Sequence record: MN894885.1
From: Escherichia phage Ec_Makalu_001
DNA length: 64,000 nt
Reading direction: 5' to 3' (one strand)
In this document: one piece after another, positions 11,738 through 24,948 of the stretch
Position numbering within the stretch: position 1 is the stretch's first letter
Layout: each line of letters opens with the position of its first letter
Translations under genes and position numbers: made by a program
The notes under the pieces: generated by a model
The model's database searches: none
What the model saw: the letters and a program-made list of their open reading frames with translations, nothing else
What the model was told of the DNA's origin: nothing

Positions 11738-12219
11738 TTTGCTAAATCATTGCAATATTTTAGTGCCTTAGTTTGAAACTCTGCGCTGTTAAGTTCTTCA
11801 TAACGGTCATAATCACCGTTTAATGCTGCCTTTCTTGCTTCTTGTTCTATCTGCATGTCAGACATGATAATACAACGATCCCGCGCTTTCATCTTCTCAA
11901 GTTGTATAGACTCTTCTTGTTGCTTGCGCAATTCTTCTTGATGCTTCTTTTCTTCTCGTGCTTTCTCTTCCCGCGCTTCTTTGATTGCATCTTTGAACAT
12001 CTGCGTTTGTGGTGCTAAACCAACTTTAACGCGATCCACGTCTCGACGTTCCATTTTAGAAATAAAGCATGATTCGATCTGGTCATCGCTTGCATATGCT
12101 GCTTTACATTCACGAAGCAAGAAAACCGGATCTGATTTAGCATTCATCATAGCTTCCATGTTAGTACAACCAGTAAGCATGAATGCAGCCGCAAGACCAA
12201 TCAGTTTAATCATTTTCAT
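11734..12219 (-). CDS. putative lipoprotein (signal peptide with lipobox LTGC)
   Basis: 161 aa; N-terminus MKMIKLIGLAAAFMLTGC; charged coiled-coil-like remainder. Confidence 0.5.
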   Translation of the reverse strand: MKMIKLIGLAAAFMLTGCTNMEAMMNAKSDPVFLLRECKAAYASDDQIESCFISKMERRDVDRVKVGLAPQTQMFKDAIKEAREEKAREEKKHQEELRKQQEESIQLEKMKARDRCIIMSDMQIEQEARKAALNGDYDRYEELNSAEFQTKALKYCNDLAK

Positions 12220-13040
12220 TTAGTCACCTCACCGAAAATTGTAAATTGTCTACGATTCTCATCGCCGAAAGATTCTACTACGTCGTTTACCTTGATGCAA
12301 GTCCCGCGCGGTAAAATTACTTCACATTCGCAAGGATTCCATGCAATAGACCCAACAACAAAACCTTTATGATCTTTTACGTCAATTACCCATGATACAT
12401 TACAAGAATGTTGCATCTTTCCGGTCATTGATTCATATCGATTCTCACAATAAAGGCTAGTGCTGTTTGAAAGCCATCCTCCAAAGATGATCGGTGTCAT
12501 GCTGGTCGATACAAAGTTTTTAAAGGTAAATTCCTTATCTTCAATAATACGCTCTATTGTCTGAATGTCAAGATGTTGACCGCGATAAAGAGTACCGTTT
12601 AACTTTTCGGTTTTATCCATGACACAATCCATCAAATCGACAATCTCTGATATCTCATCGGTCATGTCTTCTTCCCCTAAGAGAGCACCATTTACCCATT
12701 CGTATTGTTCAGACACATAATCGCAGATTGCATTATATTCTGCTGGGGTTATGTTGTTATGTTTGTAATGTTTGAATACATTATCTCCAAAATCTTCGGA
12801 ATGTACTTCATACATCACATTAATGATTTTCTTGACAAATCCATAATCTTGCGTTTCTCGCTCAAGGAAACGGATAACTTTCACGTAATCATCAAAGTTA
12901 ATATGATCGCTGATCATTTCAGTGATCATGTAACCATTAATCCCCTCAATGCCATATGTTTCGATGTAATTATCCATACGTTCCATCATTGATTCGCGTG
13001 ATTCTTCTGAAAGGCGAAAATCCTGTAATTTCTTGAACAT
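12216..13040 (-). CDS. ADP-ribosyltransferase domain protein (Alt/Mod-like, short form)
   Basis: 274 aa; R-S-E triad pattern shared with adjacent Alt: LYRG, FVSTS, CECEVILPRG. Confidence 0.6.
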   Translation of the reverse strand: MFKKLQDFRLSEESRESMMERMDNYIETYGIEGINGYMITEMISDHINFDDYVKVIRFLERETQDYGFVKKIINVMYEVHSEDFGDNVFKHYKHNNITPAEYNAICDYVSEQYEWVNGALLGEEDMTDEISEIVDLMDCVMDKTEKLNGTLYRGQHLDIQTIERIIEDKEFTFKNFVSTSMTPIIFGGWLSNSTSLYCENRYESMTGKMQHSCNVSWVIDVKDHKGFVVGSIAWNPCECEVILPRGTCIKVNDVVESFGDENRRQFTIFGEVTK

Positions 13041-13119: not shown

Positions 13120-15171
13120 TTACATTTTAAATTTATCCGGCATAGCGTCTACAGACACAAGATCAGCGATAAGCTGACGTAGAGTTGCCTTATCTGCTTT
13201 CTTACGTTCGGTTTTAGCTTCGGTAATGAAGCTGGAGAAAGACAGGTCAGAAGCAGGTTTAACAACACCTTCACGGATGAATGCATCACCGTCCGCGATC
13301 ATCTCACCAGATTCTTGTAATGCTGCCAGTTCATTTTTGTTCATAATATGTGCCTCGATGTAATAAGTTTCTTGTGAATCCGTCGATGCCGTAGCACGAG
13401 TTACCGTATCAAAGGATAACACAACACCGCGAGGAAGTAAAATCTCGCATTCTTTGTAAGCAAATGCTTTGTTACCTACTGGCAATACAGGGATGTTTTC
13501 CGCGCCAGCAATGGAGAAAGCAACATTAGCGCCACCTTCACCGCGAGATCCAGCCATAGAATCAACACCAGCAACGGCACTAGCCACGTTTGCATTCCAT
13601 CCACCAAAAATATTAGGTGCAAGGGAAGTGCTCACATAGTTTTTAAAGTAAAACGCTTTTTGCTTACGTGCAGTTTCCCACATTTGAGAACGGAAGTCCA
13701 TACCACGATACAAGATAGTACCTGGATCAAGTTTAACACCATAGTTAGCAAATGCGTTATCCAGTGCATCACACATCTTGACCAATTCTTCTGGGTCTGC
13801 GATGCCTTCAAACTCTTCCAGCTTACGGTCGGTTAGGAAGTTGTTCATATTGATGTATGCTGCATCCGCATATTCGCTCAACACAAAACCTTCCGCGCCA
13901 GGCAGATCAAGATCAATATCTGCCATCATTTCACCCATGTTGCTAGCAATTGCTTCAAACATACCGGAAGCAACATTACGCAGGGCATCGGTTTTAATCT
14001 GCGTGATGTGACTACGCAGCATTTCAGCTTTTACATCTGCTGGCATAGACTGGTCGACGCGATCCATTGCTAGGGCGGTGATCTTGTTTTCAAACACTTC
14101 TTCATTCATGATTTCTTTTAAGCGTTTGATTGATGCTGCGATAACTTCCGCAGACAACGGATCATATTGATCCTGAACTTTTACCAGTTCGCTTACTGCG
14201 TATTTTGCATCGGCTTCGCTTTCAAAAATAGTACGCATGAAACCATAGCGAGTGATAATATCACTTGTCCAGTCATTCAGAGAACGGGCGGTTGAACGTT
14301 CTAAGGCTTGACGGTCAATCAGAGTATTAAACTGTTTCTTAGGTTCTGCTTCGGTGATATCTTCTTCCGGTTTAAGATTAATTTTTTCTGGATGATTCAC
14401 ATAGTCGCTGTTATAGGTCGCTTGAGTTTTCAGCATTTCTTCTTTAGTCAAACGAGATTTAGCCGCTACGCGTTGTTCTGCTTCCGCGTTTCGTTCTTCT
14501 TCTGACACAAGACTAGCCGCATACGCCTCATCTTTAGTCAGAGATTCACCAGTAGCCTTAGATACCCAGCGATCACCTAAATCACTTTCTACTTTAGTGA
14601 ACAGGGATTCATCGAGTTTAATCCCTTTAATCTTATCAATCGCCATCCCGCGACGTTTGACAACAACTAAAGCGATCTTTTTGCTGGTCATTACTTCCTG
14701 CTGGAATACTTCAAACTTCGGTGTACGACGCACCAAACGCTCTATAACGCGCTTAACCAGTTCGGTCTTACCTTTCATGCGGGATACGTTAAAACGGAAC
14801 ATAACAGCGTCTAATTGCGCTTTACGGGCTGTTTCCATAACCACATCAAAAGCACTTGACATAACTGCAATTGGGTTATCTCCTAGACCATTTTTAAGCT
14901 GTACAATACGACCGCTTTTGTTCATTTCGCACAGTACAACATGTGCGGTCTTGTCACCCATACGAATGATTTTAGGTGTTTTGTTGGTGAAGTTACAAAG
15001 ACGGACAATCACATCTTTATCGCGTGTCTGTACTGCAAAAAGCTGTTTAGGATTCTGCTTAGGCTTTAAGCACTGTACCGGAGCAATACTGCCAAAGTTT
15101 TCTTCCTCTTCCGTCAACAGCCATTTCTCGAAAGATTCAATCATTAGATCGTCGATTTCTAAGTTAAACAT
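13120..15171 (-). CDS. alt: Alt ADP-ribosyltransferase (packaged, RNA polymerase-modifying)
   Basis: 683 aa (T4 Alt 682 aa); motifs YRG / YVSTSL / ECEILLPRG; T4 synteny. Confidence 0.85.
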   Translation of the reverse strand: MFNLEIDDLMIESFEKWLLTEEEENFGSIAPVQCLKPKQNPKQLFAVQTRDKDVIVRLCNFTNKTPKIIRMGDKTAHVVLCEMNKSGRIVQLKNGLGDNPIAVMSSAFDVVMETARKAQLDAVMFRFNVSRMKGKTELVKRVIERLVRRTPKFEVFQQEVMTSKKIALVVVKRRGMAIDKIKGIKLDESLFTKVESDLGDRWVSKATGESLTKDEAYAASLVSEEERNAEAEQRVAAKSRLTKEEMLKTQATYNSDYVNHPEKINLKPEEDITEAEPKKQFNTLIDRQALERSTARSLNDWTSDIITRYGFMRTIFESEADAKYAVSELVKVQDQYDPLSAEVIAASIKRLKEIMNEEVFENKITALAMDRVDQSMPADVKAEMLRSHITQIKTDALRNVASGMFEAIASNMGEMMADIDLDLPGAEGFVLSEYADAAYINMNNFLTDRKLEEFEGIADPEELVKMCDALDNAFANYGVKLDPGTILYRGMDFRSQMWETARKQKAFYFKNYVSTSLAPNIFGGWNANVASAVAGVDSMAGSRGEGGANVAFSIAGAENIPVLPVGNKAFAYKECEILLPRGVVLSFDTVTRATASTDSQETYYIEAHIMNKNELAALQESGEMIADGDAFIREGVVKPASDLSFSSFITEAKTERKKADKATLRQLIADLVSVDAMPDKFKM

Positions 15172-15770: not shown

Positions 15771-16289
15771 TTAGTTATTTTTTAATTGCTCATCTTGCAA
15801 TAGGGCAATCACATGCTGGCGATGTTCTTCCGATTGAGGAACACCGAAAAAGTTTGTTTTGTAGAAATACTCTAATCGGTCTTCTCGTGTGCTCTCTTCC
15901 ATCATGATCGCGGGTAGTCCGAGATTTCGGAAACGTCGCTTTTCTGCTGGCGTAAAATCACTGTAATACAACATAGAATCATCATTACCAGCAATGCTAA
16001 ACTCATCCTTCATAAAGGAGAATATTGCGTTTAAACGCTGTTTACCGTCCACGATTTCGATCTCATAGCGAGAGCCATCATCAATCTTAGCCATTGCGAT
16101 AGCACCAACCGGAAAATCATTAATCAGGTTTTCGATAAACATACGTTTGTTTTCGGTGTCCCATACCAAAGGACGCTGATAATCTGGGTTCATGTTGATA
16201 TAGCCATCTTCTAACCACGCCTCATAAACAGAGATGACAAAGTTTTTAGTATTGGTATAGTAACGGCGTTTAGGCGTTAAACGGTTCAT
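15771..16289 (-). CDS. DUF262 / ParB-like (GmrSD N-terminal type) domain protein
   Basis: Motifs NPDYQRPLVW and IVDGKQRLNAI match the DUF262 signature (xQRxxxW ... DGQQR); start chosen at internal ATG 16287-16289 with AGGAG RBS, overlapping upstream stop. Confidence 0.55.
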   Translation of the reverse strand: MNRLTPKRRYYTNTKNFVISVYEAWLEDGYINMNPDYQRPLVWDTENKRMFIENLINDFPVGAIAMAKIDDGSRYEIEIVDGKQRLNAIFSFMKDEFSIAGNDDSMLYYSDFTPAEKRRFRNLGLPAIMMEESTREDRLEYFYKTNFFGVPQSEEHRQHVIALLQDEQLKNN

Positions 16290-16290
16290 G

Positions 16291-16623
16291 TTATAGTCTC
16301 CTGAATGGATCATCACGTAAATCAATATCTTTTAAGAACTCATCCCATGAATGGCGGATATTGTTCTTAATTCTCCAGATAAGCGCAGGGATTGAACGCT
16401 CTCCCATCTGGAAGTAAGGATCATATGATCCATATGCCCAATATGCTACTACAATTCCACAATCGGCGCAATAATATTCTATTTCACTTGCTGGCGACCA
16501 AAGTCCATCAATATGATCACGGATCTTGCTTTCGATGTTATGGCTATGGCAATCAGGGCAACGGATGCAATGACCTTGTTTATCGTAATTTGACGTTAGC
16601 GAATACTTAAACAATCTCATCAT
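16291..16623 (-). CDS. zinc-ribbon protein (CxxC...CxxC)
   Basis: 110 aa; CIRCPDCHSH ... CADCG; ATGA overlap with upstream gene. Confidence 0.45.
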   Translation of the reverse strand: MMRLFKYSLTSNYDKQGHCIRCPDCHSHNIESKIRDHIDGLWSPASEIEYYCADCGIVVAYWAYGSYDPYFQMGERSIPALIWRIKNNIRHSWDEFLKDIDLRDDPFRRL

Positions 16624-17336
16624 AGATCCTTATTGGCTTCAAATACTGCCTTTGCGAATCCTCGCGGGGTAAGTGACCTGATAGTCTTTGTTCTGGTTCC
16701 TTTCCCGCCTAGCTTAGAATGCTGTTTACTGTACCCTTTATTAATCTGCAACGGTTTCTTTTCTGGCATTATAAAGCCTTGTCCGGTCCATAAGCAAGTC
16801 TTTTTCGGGTACATATCACGGGCGGCAATATACTCAGGAAACGTAGGATGCTTATCATCTTCCGGCAAATAACCGCCATATTCCCACGGATGGAACATGT
16901 AATCAGGCTTACGCCACATGCTAGAGATAACGCTTACAGGATTCTCTATCATGTAGGGAACTCCTAGCCATTCACCCAAATAAGCGGTTATTTTAGCTGC
17001 CCTTACATCATGAACTTGAATTAATGGTCCTTGTTCTCGTTTCTTTCGTTCAAAGTGCGCAGCGCCACTAACAGCTAAATTGGTGCATGGTGGGAATGCA
17101 AAGATAATATCCGGTTTCCCCCATTCAAGGTCCATTGCTCTTTCCAGCCAATTTAAATCAATCCATGTGTTTACATATGTAATGTTTGGATGTTCAAATC
17201 GGGTATTATATTTTTTGTATGTACCGTGGTCGCCATCGTCAGCATTAAAGCAGATCACCTTATGACCTGCTTTAGCCCATTCTAACCCCATTATCCCCGA
17301 TCCGTCAAAGTTGCAGAATATTAATTTTTGTTTCAT
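16620..17336 (-). CDS. putative DNA (cytosine-5) methyltransferase-like protein (short)
   Basis: 238 aa; motif I-like FCNFDGSG, motif IV-like FAFPPCTNLAVSG (Pro-Cys), motif VI-like MIENP; no clear motif VIII/X. Confidence 0.4.
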   Translation of the reverse strand: MKQKLIFCNFDGSGIMGLEWAKAGHKVICFNADDGDHGTYKKYNTRFEHPNITYVNTWIDLNWLERAMDLEWGKPDIIFAFPPCTNLAVSGAAHFERKKREQGPLIQVHDVRAAKITAYLGEWLGVPYMIENPVSVISSMWRKPDYMFHPWEYGGYLPEDDKHPTFPEYIAARDMYPKKTCLWTGQGFIMPEKKPLQINKGYSKQHSKLGGKGTRTKTIRSLTPRGFAKAVFEANKDL

Positions 17337-17826: not shown

Positions 17827-17866
17827 TGTTTGATTCTCCTAAGTGGTATCTCGTCTTGATGGTTGT

Positions 17867-17895
17867 ATTGTAGGGGAGTTATCCTCCCCTGTCAA
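17867..17895 (-). promoter_or_regulatory. early sigma70-like promoter, palindromic spacer (TTGACA-GGGGAGGATAACTCCCC-TACAAT); drives 5-gene cassette
   Basis: Minus-strand -35/-10 with 17-bp inverted-repeat spacer, A-rich UP region. Confidence 0.55.
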
Positions 17896-17909
17896 CACTT
17901 TTTATAAAA

Positions 17910-18077
17910 TTATTTGTTAATTTCTGGTGCGTTGCTAGGATAGTAACCTTCTTTAACTCCGAGGTATTTCGCAACCATCCCTACAATCTTCTGTGCTACT
18001 ACAATGTCAAATTTCAGATAATCTTCGCCGTGGGTTTCAATGATATATGCTTCACATGCTGCTTTAGTCTCGAACAT
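17910..18077 (-). CDS. hypothetical protein (55 aa), duplicate copy A
   Basis: Manual ORF MFETKAACEAYIIETHGEDYLKFDIVVAQKIVGMVAKYLGVKEGYYPSNAPEINK; near-identical to 21193-21360. Confidence 0.45.
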   Translation of the reverse strand: MFETKAACEAYIIETHGEDYLKFDIVVAQKIVGMVAKYLGVKEGYYPSNAPEINK

Positions 18078-18110
18078 TTTGATTCTCCTATTTCGTTTCG
18101 GTATGTGTGT

Positions 18111-18139
18111 ATTATAGGGGATCTCCCGATCCCCGTCAA
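18111..18139 (-). promoter_or_regulatory. early sigma70-like promoter, palindromic spacer (TTGACG-GGGATCGGGAGATCCCC-TATAAT)
   Basis: Minus-strand; consensus -10; two GATC in spacer. Confidence 0.55.
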
Positions 18140-18153
18140 CAACTTTTTTAAAA

Positions 18154-18435
18154 TTATTCGTGATTAGTTTCGATATTGTGCATTTTGCACCAGTTCAGCC
18201 AATCGCCAAGATCTTGATAGTTGATGCTTTTATCTGCTGCCATCGTTTTTGTCTTGATACCCATATGTGCGTTATGAGTAAGCATTTTTACAGTGAACTC
18301 AATTTTATCGCCTTTAGCTTTAACATCAACCAGTTTGGTCCACTGGCTACCAGCACCGCGAATGTTCATACCAACGATGTTTCCGATGTATGCTTCTTTG
18401 TTGTTCAGGATTTCGGTTGCTTTGATGAATTTCAT
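18154..18435 (-). CDS. hypothetical protein (93 aa)
   Basis: ORF with RBS and upstream promoter 18111-18139. Confidence 0.45.
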   Translation of the reverse strand: MKFIKATEILNNKEAYIGNIVGMNIRGAGSQWTKLVDVKAKGDKIEFTVKMLTHNAHMGIKTKTMAADKSINYQDLGDWLNWCKMHNIETNHE

Positions 18436-18505
18436 TTTTGATTCTCCAGTTCGTTTCGGTATGGGTGTATTATGCTATGTTCTTACTTTGGTGTCAACAA
18501 CTTTT

Positions 18506-18775
18506 TTAGATATTTTCAGAAATAAATTTTAAAACTTGACGTAAATGTTTCTCATCTTTGATAGTCGCCGGAAGTTCTTCTTTTACTTCCTGTGCAAGAT
18601 AGATATTTCCGTTCCAAGTGAAAGACCCGTCTTCGTTTACGCGATAGCTGAACATCCATTCGCAATCATTTTCGATTTCATATACACACAGAAGGGTGTA
18701 ATCTTCAAAGCTATTGATTTCAAGGTCGAAGCCGTGGCGTTTTGCAAAGTTGGTAGTGGTTTTAGTCAGTGCCAT
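18506..18775 (-). CDS. hypothetical protein (89 aa)
   Basis: ORF with GGAGAATCA RBS and upstream promoter-like motif. Confidence 0.45.
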   Translation of the reverse strand: MALTKTTTNFAKRHGFDLEINSFEDYTLLCVYEIENDCEWMFSYRVNEDGSFTWNGNIYLAQEVKEELPATIKDEKHLRQVLKFISENI

Positions 18776-18901
18776 TGTTTGATTCTCCTAAGTGGTATCT
18801 CGTTTCGATGGGTGTATTATGCTATAGGCGTGATCAGGTGTCAATGCCTTTTTTAAAATTTTATGCAATAAAAAAGCCGACACTAAGGTCGGCTAATAAA
18901 A

Positions 18902-19210
18902 TCATTTAGGCAAATAATCATTCAGTGCAATCCGGTCGGCATGTTCCGGCGTTACATCAATCGCAATCACTTTAACGCGTGCTTTCTTGCGACCTGGGTT
19001 TTCTCGTAACCAGTGCTCATGACCGTGAACATTTTTATACTGCGATGCTTCTTCGAAGGTACGGATCGGACCAGGGTAATCAGCGTAAAGGATCTCTAGG
19101 TCATCGGTGATGTAAAAATATACGTTGTAATTACTGTTCTCTAGCTTAAGCAGAGACTTTCGGAACATTGGGAGATTTTCGCGGGTAAATTCAAAAGTAA
19201 TATCTTTCAT
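18902..19210 (-). CDS. HxHW-family small protein (paralogue A)
   Basis: Start chosen at ATG 19208-19210 with RBS; motif HGHEHW ... VIAIDV. Confidence 0.4.
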   Translation of the reverse strand: MKDITFEFTRENLPMFRKSLLKLENSNYNVYFYITDDLEILYADYPGPIRTFEEASQYKNVHGHEHWLRENPGRKKARVKVIAIDVTPEHADRIALNDYLPK

Positions 19211-19233
19211 AGTATTATCCTCAATAGTTGGAT

Positions 19234-19255
19234 GAAAAGGGGGCTTAACGCCCCA
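19234..19255 (-). terminator. rho-independent terminator (repeat of GGGGCTTAACGCCCC hairpin)
   Basis: Hairpin followed by T-run on minus strand. Confidence 0.5.
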
Positions 19256-19259
19256 TATA

Positions 19260-19547
19260 TTAAAACAGTCCTTCCTGTACACCGTAGTAGAGTTCGTCGC
19301 TGATAATTTCATTAATGCGACGGTGTGCATATTCCTGATTTGCGAAGTTGTCAGCAAGTTCTACTTTAGTTTCACCGTCATGAGTCCATTTAGTGATAAC
19401 TTTACCATCTGCAAATTTGAAGTTGAACTCTTTAGCTACTGCATCGCGTACCAGACGTGCGAACTTGTTGTTACGGATTGCATTATCGGTTTCGTGTGCA
19501 GCGTGAGCAAATTTGTTAACTTTCAGAGTGATAGTGATGTATGCCAT
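19260..19547 (-). CDS. hypothetical protein (95 aa)
   Basis: ORF with GGAGAATCA RBS; hairpin terminator downstream. Confidence 0.45.
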   Translation of the reverse strand: MAYITITLKVNKFAHAAHETDNAIRNNKFARLVRDAVAKEFNFKFADGKVITKWTHDGETKVELADNFANQEYAHRRINEIISDELYYGVQEGLF

Positions 19548-19630
19548 AATTTGATTCTCCTAGTTAGAAAGTGTATCTCGTTTCGATGGGTGTATTATGC
19601 TATACACCCGATCTTATGTCAACACTTTTT

Positions 19631-19909
19631 TTATAAAATAATTTTTTGATATTTTTCTATGATGTTTGTGTAATCCACATCAACCGCTATCACCGTTGCT
19701 TCGAATCCACCGTTTAGCCAATGGCTATGGTCATGATCGTGAAAGAAACCAAGACCAGTACGAAGACCTTCTTTATATTCGGCGCGTACATTTAGATCAT
19801 CATCGATAAACAGATAAAACCATGAATTTTTACTAGGATTGATGATACAACCTTTCAGATTAGGGAGAATATCACGACTAAGAATAAACTTATCACCTAC
19901 TTTGAACAT
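19631..19909 (-). CDS. HxHW-family small protein (paralogue B)
   Basis: Start at ATG 19907-19909 with GAGGA RBS; motif HDHSHW ... VIAVDV. Confidence 0.45.
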   Translation of the reverse strand: MFKVGDKFILSRDILPNLKGCIINPSKNSWFYLFIDDDLNVRAEYKEGLRTGLGFFHDHDHSHWLNGGFEATVIAVDVDYTNIIEKYQKIIL

Positions 19910-19913
19910 AATA

Positions 19914-20234
19914 TTAGTCCTCACTTATAAGGTCAAACCAATTGTTTTTCGCATAATGCTTAATGCGTGCTTGATCTGCTTCCGCTGGTGATAGATTCCA
20001 TGCAACCACTACAACTTCTGACGCGTCGTCATCCGTTTCTGATACCCAATGATTGTGATTCATACAGTTATTTGCGATCGAGTGAGCAAATGATTTCATC
20101 ACTGGAGACGTATAATCATAGTAACGGATTTTCAGATTTTCATCAACATACAAGTAGATCGTATAAGGTTTATATTCAGTAACCAGTAACAGACAGTTAC
20201 GCAATTCTGGGAAAATCTTTTTAGTTAATTTCAT
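19914..20234 (-). CDS. HxHW-family small protein (paralogue C)
   Basis: Start at ATG 20232-20234 with GAGGA RBS; motif NHNHW ... VVVVAW. Confidence 0.4.
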   Translation of the reverse strand: MKLTKKIFPELRNCLLLVTEYKPYTIYLYVDENLKIRYYDYTSPVMKSFAHSIANNCMNHNHWVSETDDDASEVVVVAWNLSPAEADQARIKHYAKNNWFDLISED

Positions 20235-20235
20235 T

Positions 20236-20454
20236 TTATAATCCTCGGTCGCGGCTATAGTACACGGTACGCCATACAATTTCATGTTTCGTGTCGCTCC
20301 AGCACACGATCTCATTTACTCTTAAATCTTTGTTATCAACAAAAGATGAACATTGTGACGCTTCTTTCATCATTTTATCTGCTGTTTTCTCATCAAATAC
20401 AGCACAGATTTCTTTATACACTCGATAATCTTTGAATTGACTCTGGATACCCAT
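20236..20454 (-). CDS. hypothetical protein, paralogue of 20414-20671
   Basis: Shared pattern QFKDYRVYKEICAVFDEKTADKMMKEASQC vs KFKDYKAYQQILRVYDAEFAEKMMEDASKC; start assigned to internal ATG. Confidence 0.35.
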   Translation of the reverse strand: MGIQSQFKDYRVYKEICAVFDEKTADKMMKEASQCSSFVDNKDLRVNEIVCWSDTKHEIVWRTVYYSRDRGL

Positions 20455-20671
20455 AATTAACACCATTCCAACCAATTGTTTTTGAGAAAACGTTTATCCA
20501 CTGTTGAGTGTAGCATGTTTCTTTCCATGATACAATACGAGTAGAATAATGGTTTTTGTTTCCAGAAAAGGACGGGCATTTTGATGCATCTTCCATCATC
20601 TTTTCGGCGAACTCCGCGTCATATACCCGCAGGATCTGTTGATATGCTTTATAATCTTTAAATTTGCTCAT
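20414..20671 (-). CDS. hypothetical protein, paralogue of 20236-20454
   Basis: 85-aa ORF; tandem paralogue pair. Confidence 0.4.
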   Translation of the reverse strand: MSKFKDYKAYQQILRVYDAEFAEKMMEDASKCPSFSGNKNHYSTRIVSWKETCYTQQWINVFSKTIGWNGVNYGYPESIQRLSSV

Positions 20672-20936
20672 AATTGTTAACTACCTTATCAGCTTCTTTT
20701 ATTGTTTTTACATCAACTGCGATAATCCGTAAAGGTTCGTCGAAGGTCCACCAGTGGTCATGAATATCAGCTTGTGATTTATCACCAAAGGAATCACGAA
20801 TATCATTTTTACATTTATAGCTAATATGGCCTTCATAGTCAACATAAAGGTAATTATCGAAAATCGGCGTTTTTAAGATCATACCGAAAAATCTTTCTTT
20901 GTGTGTCTTATCCAGTGTTGCAGTAATTCGCATCAT
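20658..20936 (-). CDS. HxHW-family small protein (paralogue D)
   Basis: 92 aa; motif HDHWW ... IIAVDV; GAGGA RBS. Confidence 0.45.
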   Translation of the reverse strand: MMRITATLDKTHKERFFGMILKTPIFDNYLYVDYEGHISYKCKNDIRDSFGDKSQADIHDHWWTFDEPLRIIAVDVKTIKEADKVVNNYEQI

Positions 20937-20948
20937 AATATATTCCTC

Positions 20949-21128
20949 TTAGAAAGGGATGGTCATTTCTTGAGCTTGTACATTCTCGTTAGGATTAAAC
21001 TTCATCCAACCGATATTGTCTACCAGCATATGTACATTTTTATCATATCCTACGTGAGTAGTCAACACTAAATGTGCTTTGCCTTCAACGATGATTTCCA
21101 TGTACTTCTGAACTTCGATAGCTTTCAT
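20949..21128 (-). CDS. hypothetical protein (59 aa)
   Basis: Manual ORF below track cutoff; GGAGAATCA RBS; promoter-like motif upstream. Confidence 0.3.
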   Translation of the reverse strand: MKAIEVQKYMEIIVEGKAHLVLTTHVGYDKNVHMLVDNIGWMKFNPNENVQAQEMTIPF

Positions 21129-21192
21129 TTTGATTCTCCGTTTGTTTTCTTGATGGGAGTATCTTACTACTCCCTTTAATCATTGTCAACTA

Positions 21193-21360
21193 TTATTTGT
21201 TAATTTCTGGTGCGTTGCTCGGATAGTAACCTTCTTTAACACCCAGATATTTTGCAACCATTCCGGTGATCTTCTGTGCTACTACGATATCGAATTTCAG
21301 GTAGTCTTCACCGTGGTTTGCTACAATGTATGCTTCGCATTCTGCTTTAGTCTCGAACAT
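21193..21360 (-). CDS. hypothetical protein (55 aa), duplicate copy B
   Basis: MFETKAECEAYIVANHGEDYLKFDIVVAQKITGMVAKYLGVKEGYYPSNAPEINK; start at ATG 21358-21360 with GGAGAATCA RBS; promoter 21395-21423. Confidence 0.45.
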   Translation of the reverse strand: MFETKAECEAYIVANHGEDYLKFDIVVAQKITGMVAKYLGVKEGYYPSNAPEINK

Positions 21361-21394
21361 TTTTGATTCTCCTATATCTCGTTGGTATGTGTGT

Positions 21395-21423
21395 AGTATA
21401 GGGGATCTGCGATCCCCTGTCAA
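21395..21423 (-). promoter_or_regulatory. early sigma70-like promoter, palindromic spacer (TTGACA-GGGGATCGCAGATCCCC-TATACT)
   Basis: Minus-strand; upstream of duplicate copy B. Confidence 0.5.
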
Positions 21424-21428
21424 CAACT

Positions 21429-21723
21429 TTATAATGCTTTATACGCGTATTTCATAAATTTGTCTGCCACTTCATTGGCATGTTCAGATTCTACGCCTGA
21501 TTCGAGAACAATAGCTAGGTCGGTTTCGTCATTCCCGCCGTACCAATGATTTGATGTTCGATTTTTTTCAATTGGAAATTGGTCACTTTTATCTGTGCGA
21601 CAAAATACATCTAAATGCTCGTCGATGTAAAAGATCCAATCTTCATAAAGAATAACGGTATTAGCAAGATTTTTATTGCCTTCAACGAAAGGTTCCGCGA
21701 CAAATAGCTTAGTTTGTTCCATA
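21429..21723 (-). CDS. HxHW-family-like small protein (paralogue E, divergent)
   Basis: Motif YIDEHL ... SNHWYGG ... LAIVLE; start at ATG 21721-21723 with GAGGA RBS. Confidence 0.35.
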
Positions 21724-21738
21724 GTAATTTCCTCAAAA

Positions 21739-21930
21739 TTATACAGTTTCGTAAACTTCCCAATGTTCAGCGCCAACACGCTTAACGAAAAGGTTTTCTT
21801 TGATGTTATTCATAAACGTCTGGATGGATTTAATGCGGTTTGAAGGTTTCCATTCTTCGTTGGCATTGCGTCGATACATCATAACATTACCAGTTCGCTT
21901 ATATTCAGCAACCATTTTAAGACCACACAT
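21739..21930 (-). CDS. hypothetical protein (63 aa)
   Basis: ORF with GAGGA RBS. Confidence 0.3.
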   Translation of the reverse strand: MCGLKMVAEYKRTGNVMMYRRNANEEWKPSNRIKSIQTFMNNIKENLFVKRVGAEHWEVYETV

Positions 21931-21987
21931 AATATTATCCTCAATTTGTGGGAGAGTATTACCCCTCCCAATGATTGTTATGTTATA

Positions 21988-22308
21988 TCACACAAAATGG
22001 CGTGTCAATGCTTCTTTTGCGGTTCCGCTAAGACTTTCAATCTCGCCTGGCATAACATCAACCGCCAGAACTTCTACAACATCTTCGGACCCTAACCAGT
22101 GAGTATGGCCTTTGTAGAACTTGATAACCAGACCACCTTCCTCGTCCCATTTAACGCTATCGCTAGCCCACCACACATCACCGTCGATAAAGTTGATGTA
22201 AAGCACACTACGCCACATTGAATTAATTACTTTCAATACTGCGCCTTTCATCTCTTCCACGGTATGGTCTTCCATTTTGAAGACCTCACCTACCTGAACT
22301 TTTGCCAT
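21988..22308 (-). CDS. HxHW-family small protein (paralogue F)
   Basis: 106 aa; motif GHTHW ... VLAVDV; GAGGTGA RBS. Confidence 0.45.
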   Translation of the reverse strand: MAKVQVGEVFKMEDHTVEEMKGAVLKVINSMWRSVLYINFIDGDVWWASDSVKWDEEGGLVIKFYKGHTHWLGSEDVVEVLAVDVMPGEIESLSGTAKEALTRHFV

Positions 22309-22325: not shown

Positions 22326-22505
22326 TTACATAACAATCACGCCAGCCGTTGAAAGTTGATGTTTCAACTGAGCATTTTCTGCTACCGTCAAATCAATGAT
22401 TTCTTGTGACGCTGCAATCATATATCCATTGGTGATATTGTTTTGCATCAGTTCAATGGTCTCTTCGTTGTAGCGGATTTTAGCGATGATTTCGTTGAAG
22501 TTCAT
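22326..22505 (-). CDS. hypothetical protein (59 aa)
   Basis: Manual ORF below track cutoff; promoter 22540-22569 and GGAGAATCA RBS. Confidence 0.3.
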   Translation of the reverse strand: MNFNEIIAKIRYNEETIELMQNNITNGYMIAASQEIIDLTVAENAQLKHQLSTAGVIVM

Positions 22506-22539
22506 GTTTGATTCTCCTAGTTCGTTTCGGTATGTGTGT

Positions 22540-22569
22540 ATTATAGGGGAGTTTAACCTCCCCTGTCAA
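22540..22569 (-). promoter_or_regulatory. early sigma70-like promoter, palindromic spacer (TTGACA-GGGGAGGTTAAACTCCCC-TATAAT)
   Basis: Minus-strand; 18-bp inverted-repeat spacer. Confidence 0.5.
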
Positions 22570-22577
22570 CAACTTTT

Positions 22578-22889
22578 TTAAAGTTTTTCCATGATAACGG
22601 TCATAATTACATCTTCTGCGCGAGCGGTCAGATTATCAGCGTCAGTATGTGGGCGGTTGGTTGTTACAGAGATAACACCGTTGCGCACTGGTTTGATATT
22701 GATATCAAGATGATCCGCGAAACGTTCGCCAGTTACAGAATGAATTTTGGTGTTAAATTCTTTTGCCAGTGCCTTGCGAACTTCACGAATCAGGATAGCG
22801 TTTTTCAGTTGGTTCTCCGCGCTCATGGTCTTCTGAGTGTTCATGGTTCCGTCGAAGTCAATCATTGGCAGCGTTACGATGTATTTCAT
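22578..22889 (-). CDS. hypothetical protein (103 aa)
   Basis: ORF with GGAGAATCA RBS; promoter 22935-22963. Confidence 0.45.
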   Translation of the reverse strand: MKYIVTLPMIDFDGTMNTQKTMSAENQLKNAILIREVRKALAKEFNTKIHSVTGERFADHLDINIKPVRNGVISVTTNRPHTDADNLTARAEDVIMTVIMEKL

Positions 22890-22934
22890 TTTTGATTCTC
22901 CGTTTAAGAAAGTGTGTTTCGTTTTGATGTGTGT

Positions 22935-22963
22935 AGTATAGGGGATACGTGATCCCCTGTCAA
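22935..22963 (-). promoter_or_regulatory. early sigma70-like promoter, palindromic spacer (TTGACA-GGGGATCACGTATCCCC-TATACT)
   Basis: Minus-strand; upstream of 103-aa gene. Confidence 0.5.
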
Positions 22964-22976
22964 CAACTTTTTTGAA

Positions 22977-23453
22977 TTATTTTTCTTGATGCTCGCGCTC
23001 GTACTTTTCGAAATAAAATTCTACTGGCTGGTCATGAATTGACAGCAAGCCAAAGCGTTTAGCCGCTCGCAATCCCATATTGCGCTGAATGTACTTCTGG
23101 AAGTTCTCGCGTATACACTTACGCCAGTATTCTAAGCCCATACAGCTTTTATAAAGATTGCATTGCACACACGCCGGATTCATGTTATCAAGTATATCAT
23201 GCTCCGGTTTATGCATTCCTACAACCTTATACTTCCACGATCCATCATCGTTACGGGCAATGCGACCATTTTCATCATAGACTACTTTTGAGCGTCGTAA
23301 TACTGGTTTGATGTGGTCTGCGTGCCAGCGATCCCCTAGTTCCTCACCACAATAGGCACAACGTCCACCGTATTTCATTTTCAGGATCTGGCGTTGCTCT
23401 TTCTTTGACAATTTTTTAGGTTTAGGGGCTTTCGCCCCTTCATTATCACACAT
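22977..23453 (-). CDS. HNH endonuclease
   Basis: 158 aa; CAYCGEELGDRWHADHIKPV ... N ... CVQCNLYK (Cys4 / H-N-H pattern). Confidence 0.6.
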   Translation of the reverse strand: MCDNEGAKAPKPKKLSKKEQRQILKMKYGGRCAYCGEELGDRWHADHIKPVLRRSKVVYDENGRIARNDDGSWKYKVVGMHKPEHDILDNMNPACVQCNLYKSCMGLEYWRKCIRENFQKYIQRNMGLRAAKRFGLLSIHDQPVEFYFEKYEREHQEK

Positions 23454-24948
23454 CGAATACCTCTTTTACTGTATTTGCAGTGGTCTTGTCGTAGCGAATA
23501 CGTTTGATGATTGGGAGAAATAAAGAGAACTCCGGTTCATCTTCTTTACGTGATTTGCTGCGAATGTACCCGTTGCATGTCATCTCAATGACTTTTCCAA
23601 TCAGGTTATGACGGTCAGCCCATAACATTTCTCGGTCGAGTTCATTTCGACGATCGAACGGAATTACACGTTCAATACCATCATCATCTTTTTCGGTTGT
23701 GGTGTCGGTCAATCCCGATCCGGTGTTAGTCGTCATTCGTCCGCACGCACTACGGACAGTAAAACCGCCTACCTTGTTAGGATCTTTACTATGCGGATAT
23801 ACATCAACAATTTCCGCGTCGAAGTCAATCACTTCTTTAAATTTAACCTGATCTTTACTGCGACGATCTTCAAATACACCATGTAAATTTTTAAGGATAA
23901 TACCTTCCAATCCCATGTTTACATAGCGATGATATACTTCGCGAGCTTCATCGATATTGTTAACTACAGTGTTTTCGATTATCTGAACACGAGGATCGTT
24001 AAGTTCTTCAACAATCTGTTTTAGTTCTTCGAATCGATCTTTATATTGCTTCGTTGCTTTCTCGTTTCCGTAATACACATCACGGTCGATAACATCCCAG
24101 ACAGTGTAAACAATACATTGGGCTTCTTCTTTTGGAATAGTTCCTTTCAGTGATTTGTTGAGGATACCATTTCCGGTCTGACGGTCTGCAACAACGGATT
24201 CTTTCACTGCTTCCGCTACTGGCGTTAATGGCATTTCCTCTTCTTCAAATATCCATGATAGAGTACCATCATAAACGCTCTCAACGAAGTTCTGCGCTGG
24301 TGTTTGAGAAAGGGTAGGCATATATACCAACTCACCATCTAAAACAATTCCACGGCCTCGTAGACGCTCTAAAACAGCAAACAAATCATCCAGCCCCTGA
24401 TAGGTATTACCTGAACGGGTATAGATTGCTAATGTTTCTCCGTCAATATCAGCCATACCACGAGCGCCATCGCTTTTAAGTTGTGCATACGCCGGATATT
24501 TGATATTGGCAATAGTCTTATCAGAACATGACGATGCAAGGTGGCAAGGTTGCTGAGGAATCAGCTTCTTCCATACCTTGTTTGCGGTGGTAGCGGAACA
24601 ACCGCATTCCAGATCACGATTCAGGACCATCATTGCAACTTTAGCATCATCTTCTGACAAGCAAGTCAGAGTATCGGTAACTAGCTGTAATGCAGCATTA
24701 CCAGTTACTTGACGCGTGGCAAGTTTATTTTTAAAGACCTGTAATGCACCGGATAAAGACAATACAGACGAATAGCGAGACGGTTTATCGTATTTCTTTA
24801 CGCCAAACGTAACCTGCTTGCAATATGCCAGATAAAAGCATTCTTTCAGCGTTTCATTGCTTGCAGATTCTTTCAGGATCTTTTCTTTCAGCGATGTTTT
24901 GTCAGTGGCTGCAAGCTGATTAATGATATTAAGAATTGACATTTTCAC
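23446..24948 (-). CDS. 30: ATP-dependent DNA ligase gp30
   Basis: 500 aa; similarity to T4 DNA ligase incl. FPAYAQLKSDGARG (KxDG adenylation motif) and DGELVY. Confidence 0.9.
   Translation of the reverse strand: MKMSILNIINQLAATDKTSLKEKILKESASNETLKECFYLAYCKQVTFGVKKYDKPSRYSSVLSLSGALQVFKNKLATRQVTGNAALQLVTDTLTCLSEDDAKVAMMVLNRDLECGCSATTANKVWKKLIPQQPCHLASSCSDKTIANIKYPAYAQLKSDGARGMADIDGETLAIYTRSGNTYQGLDDLFAVLERLRGRGIVLDGELVYMPTLSQTPAQNFVESVYDGTLSWIFEEEEMPLTPVAEAVKESVVADRQTGNGILNKSLKGTIPKEEAQCIVYTVWDVIDRDVYYGNEKATKQYKDRFEELKQIVEELNDPRVQIIENTVVNNIDEAREVYHRYVNMGLEGIILKNLHGVFEDRRSKDQVKFKEVIDFDAEIVDVYPHSKDPNKVGGFTVRSACGRMTTNTGSGLTDTTTEKDDDGIERVIPFDRRNELDREMLWADRHNLIGKVIEMTCNGYIRSKSRKEDEPEFSLFLPIIKRIRYDKTTANTVKEVFDV

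Follow-up and report, generated by a model that had tools for sequence, protein, structure and literature searches.

Six small H-x-H-W proteins encoded beside the ligase gene of a Krischvirus genome form one anciently diverged family

In the 64,000-nucleotide stretch of Escherichia phage Ec_Makalu_001 analyzed here (MN894885.1; hereafter the window), six small minus-strand genes lying between positions 18902 and 22308 are anciently diverged paralogues of a single lineage-restricted family of 92-106-aa, mostly acidic alpha/beta proteins, which we call H-x-H-W proteins after their most distinctive motif. A 6-kb stretch around them shares 94-99% identity with Krischvirus genomes (Ec_Makalu_003, kaaroe, kvi, ECD7 and RB49), which assigns the window to an RB49-like, T4-type coliphage of that genus. 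An earlier note made from the letters of the window had proposed six minus-strand open reading frames (ORFs) at this place: all of them exist, and the coordinates of A, B, C, D and F were exact, whereas the end of E (21723, giving a length that is not a multiple of three) was off by 1 nt and is corrected to 21722, with the ATG at 21722-21720. A GAGG ribosome-binding (Shine-Dalgarno) site lies 5-9 nt upstream of the ATG in all six genes. In the direction of transcription F is the first family gene and A the last:

21988..22308, minus strand: paralogue F, 106 aa, isoelectric point (pI) 4.8; H-T-H-W and V-L-A-V-D-V
21429..21722, minus strand: paralogue E, 97 aa, pI 4.5; S-N-H-W and V-L-E-S-G-V, the most decayed motifs of the six
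20658..20936, minus strand: paralogue D, 92 aa; H-D-H-W and I-I-A-V-D-V
19914..20234, minus strand: paralogue C, 106 aa; H-N-H-W and V-V-A-W-N-L
19631..19909, minus strand: paralogue B, 92 aa; H-D-H-D-H-S-H-W and V-I-A-V-D-V
18902..19210, minus strand: paralogue A, 102 aa; H-G-H-E-H-W and V-I-A-I-D-V

The six genes are the counterparts of RB49p197, p199, p200, p203, p206 and p208, and these and the other counterparts are annotated as coding sequences for a "hypothetical protein" in every related genome inspected.

Homology, motifs and predicted fold of the six proteins

The homology of the six, proposed in the earlier note together with the caveat that it would fall if no significant profile matches joined the members, is borne out by leave-one-out hidden Markov models (HMMs), by alignment of subfamily profiles with hhalign and by pairwise BLASTP, all of which link members to each other. 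When an HMM built from five members was run against the 1,024 six-frame ORFs of the window, the omitted sixth was recovered with E-values of 5.5e-11 (A), 7e-8 (B), 6.6e-11 (C), 5.6e-5 (D) and 1.4e-6 (F); that of E was weak (0.011), the best non-family ORF across the tests scoring 0.07-0.9. BLASTP joins A to C (about 1e-13), A to B, B to F, B to D, A to F and A to D; C is closest to A, and both fall in phrog_9345. A profile of the E subfamily aligns with the profile of all other members at an hhalign probability of 98.3% (E = 2.1e-14, 74 aligned columns), and E is the weak link in the present genome only, its orthologues elsewhere retaining T-H-N-H-W and V-L-A-S-D-V. A scan with the family HMM of the window and RB49 1-100 kb (1,981 ORFs), taken together as one whole-genome equivalent, finds the six to be the full complement (next best E = 0.41).

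The paralogues are 17-31% identical to each other, and their shared motifs are confined to a few positions. H-x-H-W occurs five times in the 42,961 six-frame ORF residues of the window, against 0.39 occurrences expected from composition, and every occurrence is in a family member. The motif, which the earlier note had given to all six, is present in A, B, C, D and F, whereas E has S-N-H-W and thus misses the first His. Similarly, the hydrophobic A-[IV]-D-V strand holds for A, B, D and F but not for C (A-W-N-L) or E (E-S-G-V). Across 25 diverse members only the second His and the Trp never vary; the first His, lost in some E-type members, and the Tyr of Y-[LIV]-Y-[IV]-D are each at least 90% conserved, and the Asp of A-x-D-V varies between D, N and G.

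AlphaFold2 models of A (mean predicted local distance difference test score, pLDDT, 84.1; predicted template modeling score, pTM, 0.79) and of F (pLDDT 84.8, pTM 0.78), which are 23-25% identical in sequence, adopt one common predicted topology: beta1, a short helix, beta2, beta3, beta4, the H-x-H-W segment, beta5 and one or more C-terminal helices. The H-x-H-W segment is ordered in the model of F (block pLDDT 84-91). A search of BFVD returned only Krischvirus family members, with models of other paralogues matching model A at template modeling (TM) scores of 0.57-0.76. The earlier note had not recognized the family, and it remains without a consistent match in Pfam, NCBIfam, PADLOC or PDB sequences, the six paralogues being spread over five PHROGs of unknown function; no enzyme family is matched by the members in Pfam, NCBIfam or PDB sequences. 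Stray matches to PROCT (0.0034), TTL (0.07), T4_Y03C (0.1) and the MSC_0621 epsilon subunit (0.02) were set aside as noise, each occurring in one member and under the curated cut-off. We also rejected an array of polymorphic-toxin immunity proteins, a reading that calls for an adjacent toxin gene together with similarity to a known immunity family, a combination that was not found.

The histidines raise the question of metal-binding or catalytic mini-proteins, in which H-x-H and a nearby Asp would bind a divalent metal in a hydrolytic, redox or folding role. H-x-H is a common metal-ligand spacing, the alternating histidines number three in A (HGHEH) and four in B (HDHDHSH), and acidic residues follow beta3 and beta5. 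Against this, one His alone is invariant, the first can be lost and the A-x-D-V Asp exchanged for N or G; there is no conserved Cys, no metalloenzyme or HIT family match in Pfam, NCBIfam or PDB sequences, and a metallo-beta-lactamase match spans 49 residues and is not repeated for model F. We consider such a role quite unlikely. Membership of the HIT nucleotide hydrolases was considered in its own right and dropped, neither their H-phi-H-phi-H-phi-phi motif nor their fold being found here; motif conservation and the lack of a family or fold match likewise led us to reject the broader HIT/metalloenzyme reading of H-x-H.

Extent, age and selection of the family

An exhaustive profile search of 1.84 billion cluster representatives yielded 21 matches, of which two (P0097 and P0098) are false positives, being long repeat proteins that match 30-33 profile positions in several repeated stretches. 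The distant genuine members come from short metagenomic contigs. Among these, L004 (the 2.1-kb Logan contig SRR8048117_15661) carries, in order, a homolog of the interleaved gene g13, an F-like gene (50% identity), a g10-like gene, a fusion of two B-like domains, a D-like gene (38%) and a C-like gene (44%); in L005 and L006 an E-like gene (49%) comes after a g3-like gene. More distant uncultured phage thus already has the F-, D-, C-, B- and E-like subfamilies, at 33-50% identity. A search for related loci with a tighter E-type alignment returned two Krischvirus-like viral contigs only, and when the database was searched again from the distant members, P0100 and P0101 were the sole additions, so the family extends no further: these searches show it, on the evidence of sequence, to be confined to Krischvirus and a few uncultured relatives.

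As the subfamilies and part of the gene order recur in the distant contigs, they predate the split between the lineages, and the wide divergence between the paralogues is a matter of age and not of speed. The fusion in L004 (P0086, positions 823-1434) is a natural 203-aa protein with two H-x-H-W domains, both B-like, and hints that the domain may work as a dimer. In the window g13 (59 aa, 22326-22505) lies directly before F (21988-22308), as it does in L004 (25-213 before 229-573), at 67% identity for g13 and 50% for F; this is the only gene pairing of the array kept at that distance, and a functional link between g13 and F is possible. A general two-gene module, with a 59-63-aa gene before each family gene, was rejected: only g13-F is kept, and the distant E-like gene follows a g3-like gene.

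Selection and retention were followed across the genus. The gene-wide ratio of nonsynonymous to synonymous divergence (dN/dS, by the Nei-Gojobori method) among 13 Krischvirus loci is 0.22 for A, 0.13 for B, 0.17 for C, 0.15 for D, 0.17 for E and 0.11 for F, and each paralogue is present in 12 or 13 of these loci. The interleaved genes give 0.01-0.43, and ligase, Dcm and HNH 0.03, 0.06 and 0.04. In a collection of 50,697 phage records, 58 matched the region (about 58 Krischvirus genomes); A is found in 56 records, B in 53, C in 56, D in 56, E in 55 and F in 55, all of them Krischvirus. A is disrupted, either split in two or truncated, in the cultured phages JSE (EU863408) and kvi (MN850615), with annotated products of 80 and 85 aa, and is apparently absent from the metagenomic contig L003; A, at least, is therefore dispensable.

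Within this near-uniform set, divergent alleles of three members circulate: 21 of the 55 records with E carry it at 60-80% identity, 5 of 56 have a D below 60% (including Phi1, 55%) and three records have a C below 60% (including JSE, 54%). Between the allele classes of E the synonymous divergence (dS) is 0.83 and dN/dS 0.19. Synonymous divergence so near saturation indicates that the E, D and C variants are old alleles exchanged by recombination and not the product of fast adaptive change. At least two old allele classes of E, at ~70-85% aa identity, are seen across the window and L003, L008, L010, L012, L013 and L014, with flanking genes above 95%; here, as for D in Phi1 and C in JSE, recombination has replaced alleles locally.

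These data bear on the proposal of an arms-race array, in which positive selection against variable host targets would be driving rapid diversification of the copies, as the earlier note supposed. The low identity between paralogues and the discrete alleles of E, D and C could be read that way; the dN/dS of the family exceeds that of the core genes ligase, Dcm and HNH, and across the split to L004 its members (33-50% identity) have diverged more than their neighbors g13, g10 and g3 (51-67%). Yet no copy and no allele-class comparison has a dN/dS anywhere near 1, the alleles of E are old by their dS, the copy number is six in the one genome equivalent scanned, each copy persists throughout the genus (in 53-56 of about 58 genomes), and the subfamilies already existed in the distant phage. 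We accordingly give the arms-race proposal very little credence. The repeated duplication assumed in the same note holds, the six being diverged paralogues so produced; "rapid diversification" does not. Together the data show copies that arose by old duplications in a recombination-prone region, the full set having since been kept under purifying selection with occasional exchange of whole alleles.

Early transcription and genomic setting

The six genes lie between alt and gene 30 in the hyperplastic region that corresponds to RB49 ORFs 190-212. They had been described as a tandem array; they are better called a cluster, as nine unrelated small genes are interleaved with them and only C and B are directly adjacent, with B starting 4 nt past the end of C. 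The intergenic repeats among them are promoter and stem-loop (PeSL) cassettes, a type described for RB49/phi1 as an AT-rich UP element, sigma-70 -35 and -10 boxes and a GC stem-loop (PMC2839356). Here they comprise an AT-rich element, TTGACA, a 17-18-nt spacer that often holds a G/C stem-loop and a TATAAT-like -10 box, and their promoters agree with the sigma-70 consensus in 11 or 12 of its 12 positions. The elements that define the transcription units of the family are:

22506..22600, minus strand: PeSL cassette with AT-rich UP region, -35 TTGACA (22569-22564) and -10 TATAAT, upstream of g13-F-g12-E
21361..21450, minus strand: PeSL cassette with -35 TTGACA (21423-21418) and -10 TATACT, upstream of g11-g10-D-g9-g8-C-B
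19548..19650, minus strand: PeSL-variant promoter with -35 TTGACA (19622-19617) and -10 CATAAT, upstream of g7-A; repeat family D4
18875..18894, minus strand: intrinsic-terminator-like hairpin and T-run directly after A, closing the transcription unit

The first cassette (repeat family D2) matches the consensus at 12 of 12 positions and has a spacer stem-loop GGGGAG...CTCCCC (hairpin -8.2 kcal/mol); the second has a spacer hairpin GGGGATC-GCA-GATCCCC (-10.4 kcal/mol), and a second, weaker promoter-like site lies at 21189-21161, upstream of g10. In the variant promoter the stem-loop overlaps the -10 box and is not in the spacer. The terminator-like hairpin has seven pairs, five of them GC, and the tail TTTTTATT (-11.2 kcal/mol). 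No T4-type late promoter box (TATAAATA) is found within 17-23.5 kb of the window. From the PeSL early promoters and this lack of a late box we infer, on good grounds, that the six genes, which lie in an accessory region, are expressed early, as the earlier note had surmised.

Across the wider region, the ~70-95-nt PeSL-type intergenic repeat occurs in eight minus-strand copies with a common GGAGAATCAAA ribosome-binding site and, in most copies, a spacer stem-loop:

17846-17915, 18077-18159, 18435-18517, 18772-18864, 19550-19642, 21361-21443, 22506-22589 and 22891-22983: PeSL repeat copies

Relative to RB49 (L001), cassette indels are seen at 18078-18153, 18776-18901 and 22890-22976, and the window lacks counterparts of RB49p192, RB49p195/196/196.1 and RB49p211; ORF192 is an example of PeSL-mediated excision in PMC2839356. 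One cassette duplication is recent (17909-18080 and 21192-21363): its genes g4 (17910-18077) and g11 (21193-21360) encode 55-aa proteins of phrog_8009, of unknown function, at 91% protein and 86% DNA identity, and their upstream PeSLs are also similar (83%). Between D and C lie the overlapping paralogues g8 and g9 (20236-20454 and 20414-20671; 43% identity, BLASTP 2e-16, phrog_8471), of which g8 is very divergent among Krischvirus (dS 0.92, minimum aa identity 61%). A third interleaved pair, g7 and g14 (19260-19547 and 22578-22889), is joined by phrog_7474 (E about 1e-43), with no BLASTP link at E <0.01; of the 13 related loci, only 8 carry a g14 orthologue.

The region is bounded by the following genes:

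23446-24948: DNA ligase gene 30, upstream boundary in the direction of minus-strand transcription
22977-23453: HNH endonuclease, likewise at the upstream boundary
16620-17336: Dcm-like methyltransferase, far end
15771-16325, minus strand: DUF262/GmrSD_N-domain protein, 184 aa (Pfam E = 5e-20), far end
13120-15171, minus strand: Alt-like ADP-ribosyltransferase, far end
12216-13040, minus strand: second ADP-ribosyltransferase, far end

The two adjacent ADP-ribosyltransferase genes match Pfam ADPrib_exo_Tox with E = 1e-15 (12216-13040) and 5e-9 (13120-15171), and the larger (13120-15171) is an Alt-like RNA polymerase ADP-ribosyltransferase by the annotation of related genomes. Type IV restriction enzymes, which target modified DNA, have GmrSD_N/DUF262 as their N-terminal domain, and its occurrence as a short stand-alone early phage gene beside a Dcm-like methyltransferase (15771-16325) is unusual.

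Two further explanations can be weighed against this setting. The proteins might be subunits of one hetero-oligomeric assembly, such as pseudo-symmetric rings or heterodimers, which would explain their joint retention. Nearly all genomes keep the six together, co-expression from adjacent early units is predicted, C and B are translationally close (4 nt apart) and a natural two-domain fusion exists; nevertheless, the other members persist where A is disrupted (JSE and kvi) or apparently missing (L003), E, D and C are singly replaced by 30-45% divergent alleles with no matching changes in the others, and the composition of L004 differs, which makes a joint assembly a rather improbable account. 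Alternatively, the six could be functionless cargo or mis-called ORFs, selfish ORFans hitch-hiking on PeSL cassettes in a hyperplastic region where cassettes come and go (PMC2839356), with A broken in two cultured phages and no known function for any of them. This explanation is scarcely credible in view of the purifying selection on all six, their good ribosome-binding sites and ATG starts, their confident and mutually consistent predicted folds and the retention of the genes in a distant lineage.

Possible functions and comparison with known systems

We tentatively favor, at a little short of even confidence, early, host- or defence-directed binding proteins that are non-enzymatic, have subfamily-specific partners and are possibly dimeric. 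The host-takeover or anti-defence role with variable targets that the earlier note suggested is likewise a sensible conjecture. The H-x-H-W proteins would be made in the first minutes of infection and would bind components of the host or of its defences. A scaffold or contact site common to all would be formed by the conserved hydrophobic strands together with the His-Trp element, and the surfaces that diverge would give each subfamily its own non-redundant partner. The non-enzymatic aspect is suggested because no other putative ligand is as constant as the one invariant His and the Trp, and no enzyme family matches; subfamily-specific binding, because surfaces diverge while the core strands are kept; a host-directed role, because the neighborhood is rich in host-modifying functions; and action as dimers, because a related phage has the natural two-domain fusion P0086.

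Several points weigh against this proposal. Its functional half is drawn from context, and homology links none of the members to a partner or phenotype. The motif kept across 17-30%-identical paralogues could equally mark a shared ligand or metal site. The disruption of A in JSE and kvi shows that cultured phage can do without at least one copy. A gene-wide dN/dS average would miss a few positively selected sites. Anti-defence genes are expected to be patchily distributed, and the near-universal retention of the six across the genus speaks against classic genes of that kind.

A bolder version, which we think unlikely but worth stating, is that of a previously unrecognized early-effector fold family whose six anciently specialized members each neutralize a different host factor or immune pathway, by protein inhibition or by signal sequestering through the His-Trp site; if true, they would be a compact genus-wide multi-tool for T4-type phage. 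Should a role in host takeover or counter-defence prove correct, a new protein family would be defined; otherwise this is one more orphan family, properly delimited. Either way, the small ORFans of hyperplastic regions in T4-type phages are usually regarded as unrelated and disposable, and here six of them belong to a single old family that has an invariant His-Trp element and whose fold, predicted with confidence, matches no other. The result also corrects a tempting inference, in that divergence between paralogues does not equal a current arms race. The small, soluble-looking proteins are a well-defined and tractable target for functional work, and RB49, with its unmodified cytosine DNA, is easy to edit.

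The closest functional analogy to consider is that of a small-molecule sponge, in which oligomers would sequester nucleotide immune signals (cyclic oligonucleotides, gcADPR) like Tad1, Tad2 and Acb2, with the His-Trp element stacking on and hydrogen-bonding the ligand and the six paralogues covering different signals. Tad1, Tad2 and Acb2 are of similar size (86-104 aa), the motif is kept across highly diverged paralogues and the P0086 fusion hints at oligomers, Tad2 being a tetrameric sponge (10.1101/2023.11.15.567273). Tad2/AcrIIA7 (DUF2829) proteins are, like the H-x-H-W family, small phage proteins of ~90-100 aa with an antiparallel beta-sheet and a helix. The topologies appear to differ, in that the long helix is N-terminal in Tad2, ahead of a five-stranded antiparallel sheet, and C-terminal in the models of the H-x-H-W family; the structural comparison gives a Z score below 5, there is no sequence or profile similarity, and the DUF2829 signature residues (GWNGKGM, SQTDxLAEDW) are all missing from the family. 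Membership of DUF2829/Tad2/AcrIIA7 was excluded by Pfam, where 0 of the 25 members match DUF2829 at E up to 1; by a search of the family profile against all PDB sequences, in which chains of Tad2 and AcrIIA7 stayed unmatched even with E allowed up to 10; and by an hhalign probability of 0.08% against a DUF2829 alignment, for which Tad2 sequences were fished with a consensus-like bait and only the PDB segments returned were used. Sponge-like action has no positive support, and we judge it improbable.

The closest genomic analogy is with the PeSL ORFan cassettes of RB49/phi1 (Arbiol et al. 2010, PMC2839356; Comeau et al. 2014, PMC4122927), which concern the same genome type and region, with the same promoter and stem-loop cassettes upstream and the same kind of cassette gain and loss as here. 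The hyperplastic region does lie behind PeSLs (-35 boxes at 22569, 21423 and 19622), whereas the other hallmark, each ORF being individually flanked and variably present, is not found for the family genes. These sit inside multi-gene units, most of them not being individually flanked by PeSLs, and in contrast to mobile single-ORF cassettes all six are stably kept across the genus. The g4/g11, g8/g9 and g7/g14 families resemble the H-x-H-W family in their early units, similar small size and local duplication; they differ in having two copies each and are unrelated to it by HMM scans, and one of these pairs is recent (91% aa identity), as opposed to the 17-31% identity of the H-x-H-W copies. PMC2839356 treats the ORFs as unrelated ORFans and never uses the word 'paralog', and we found no description in the literature of the six genes as a family or of their function. 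GenBank has held the genes since the RB49 genome, and the region was already studied for its PeSLs; what is new is their grouping as one family, whereby six of those ORFans become members of a single ancient lineage.

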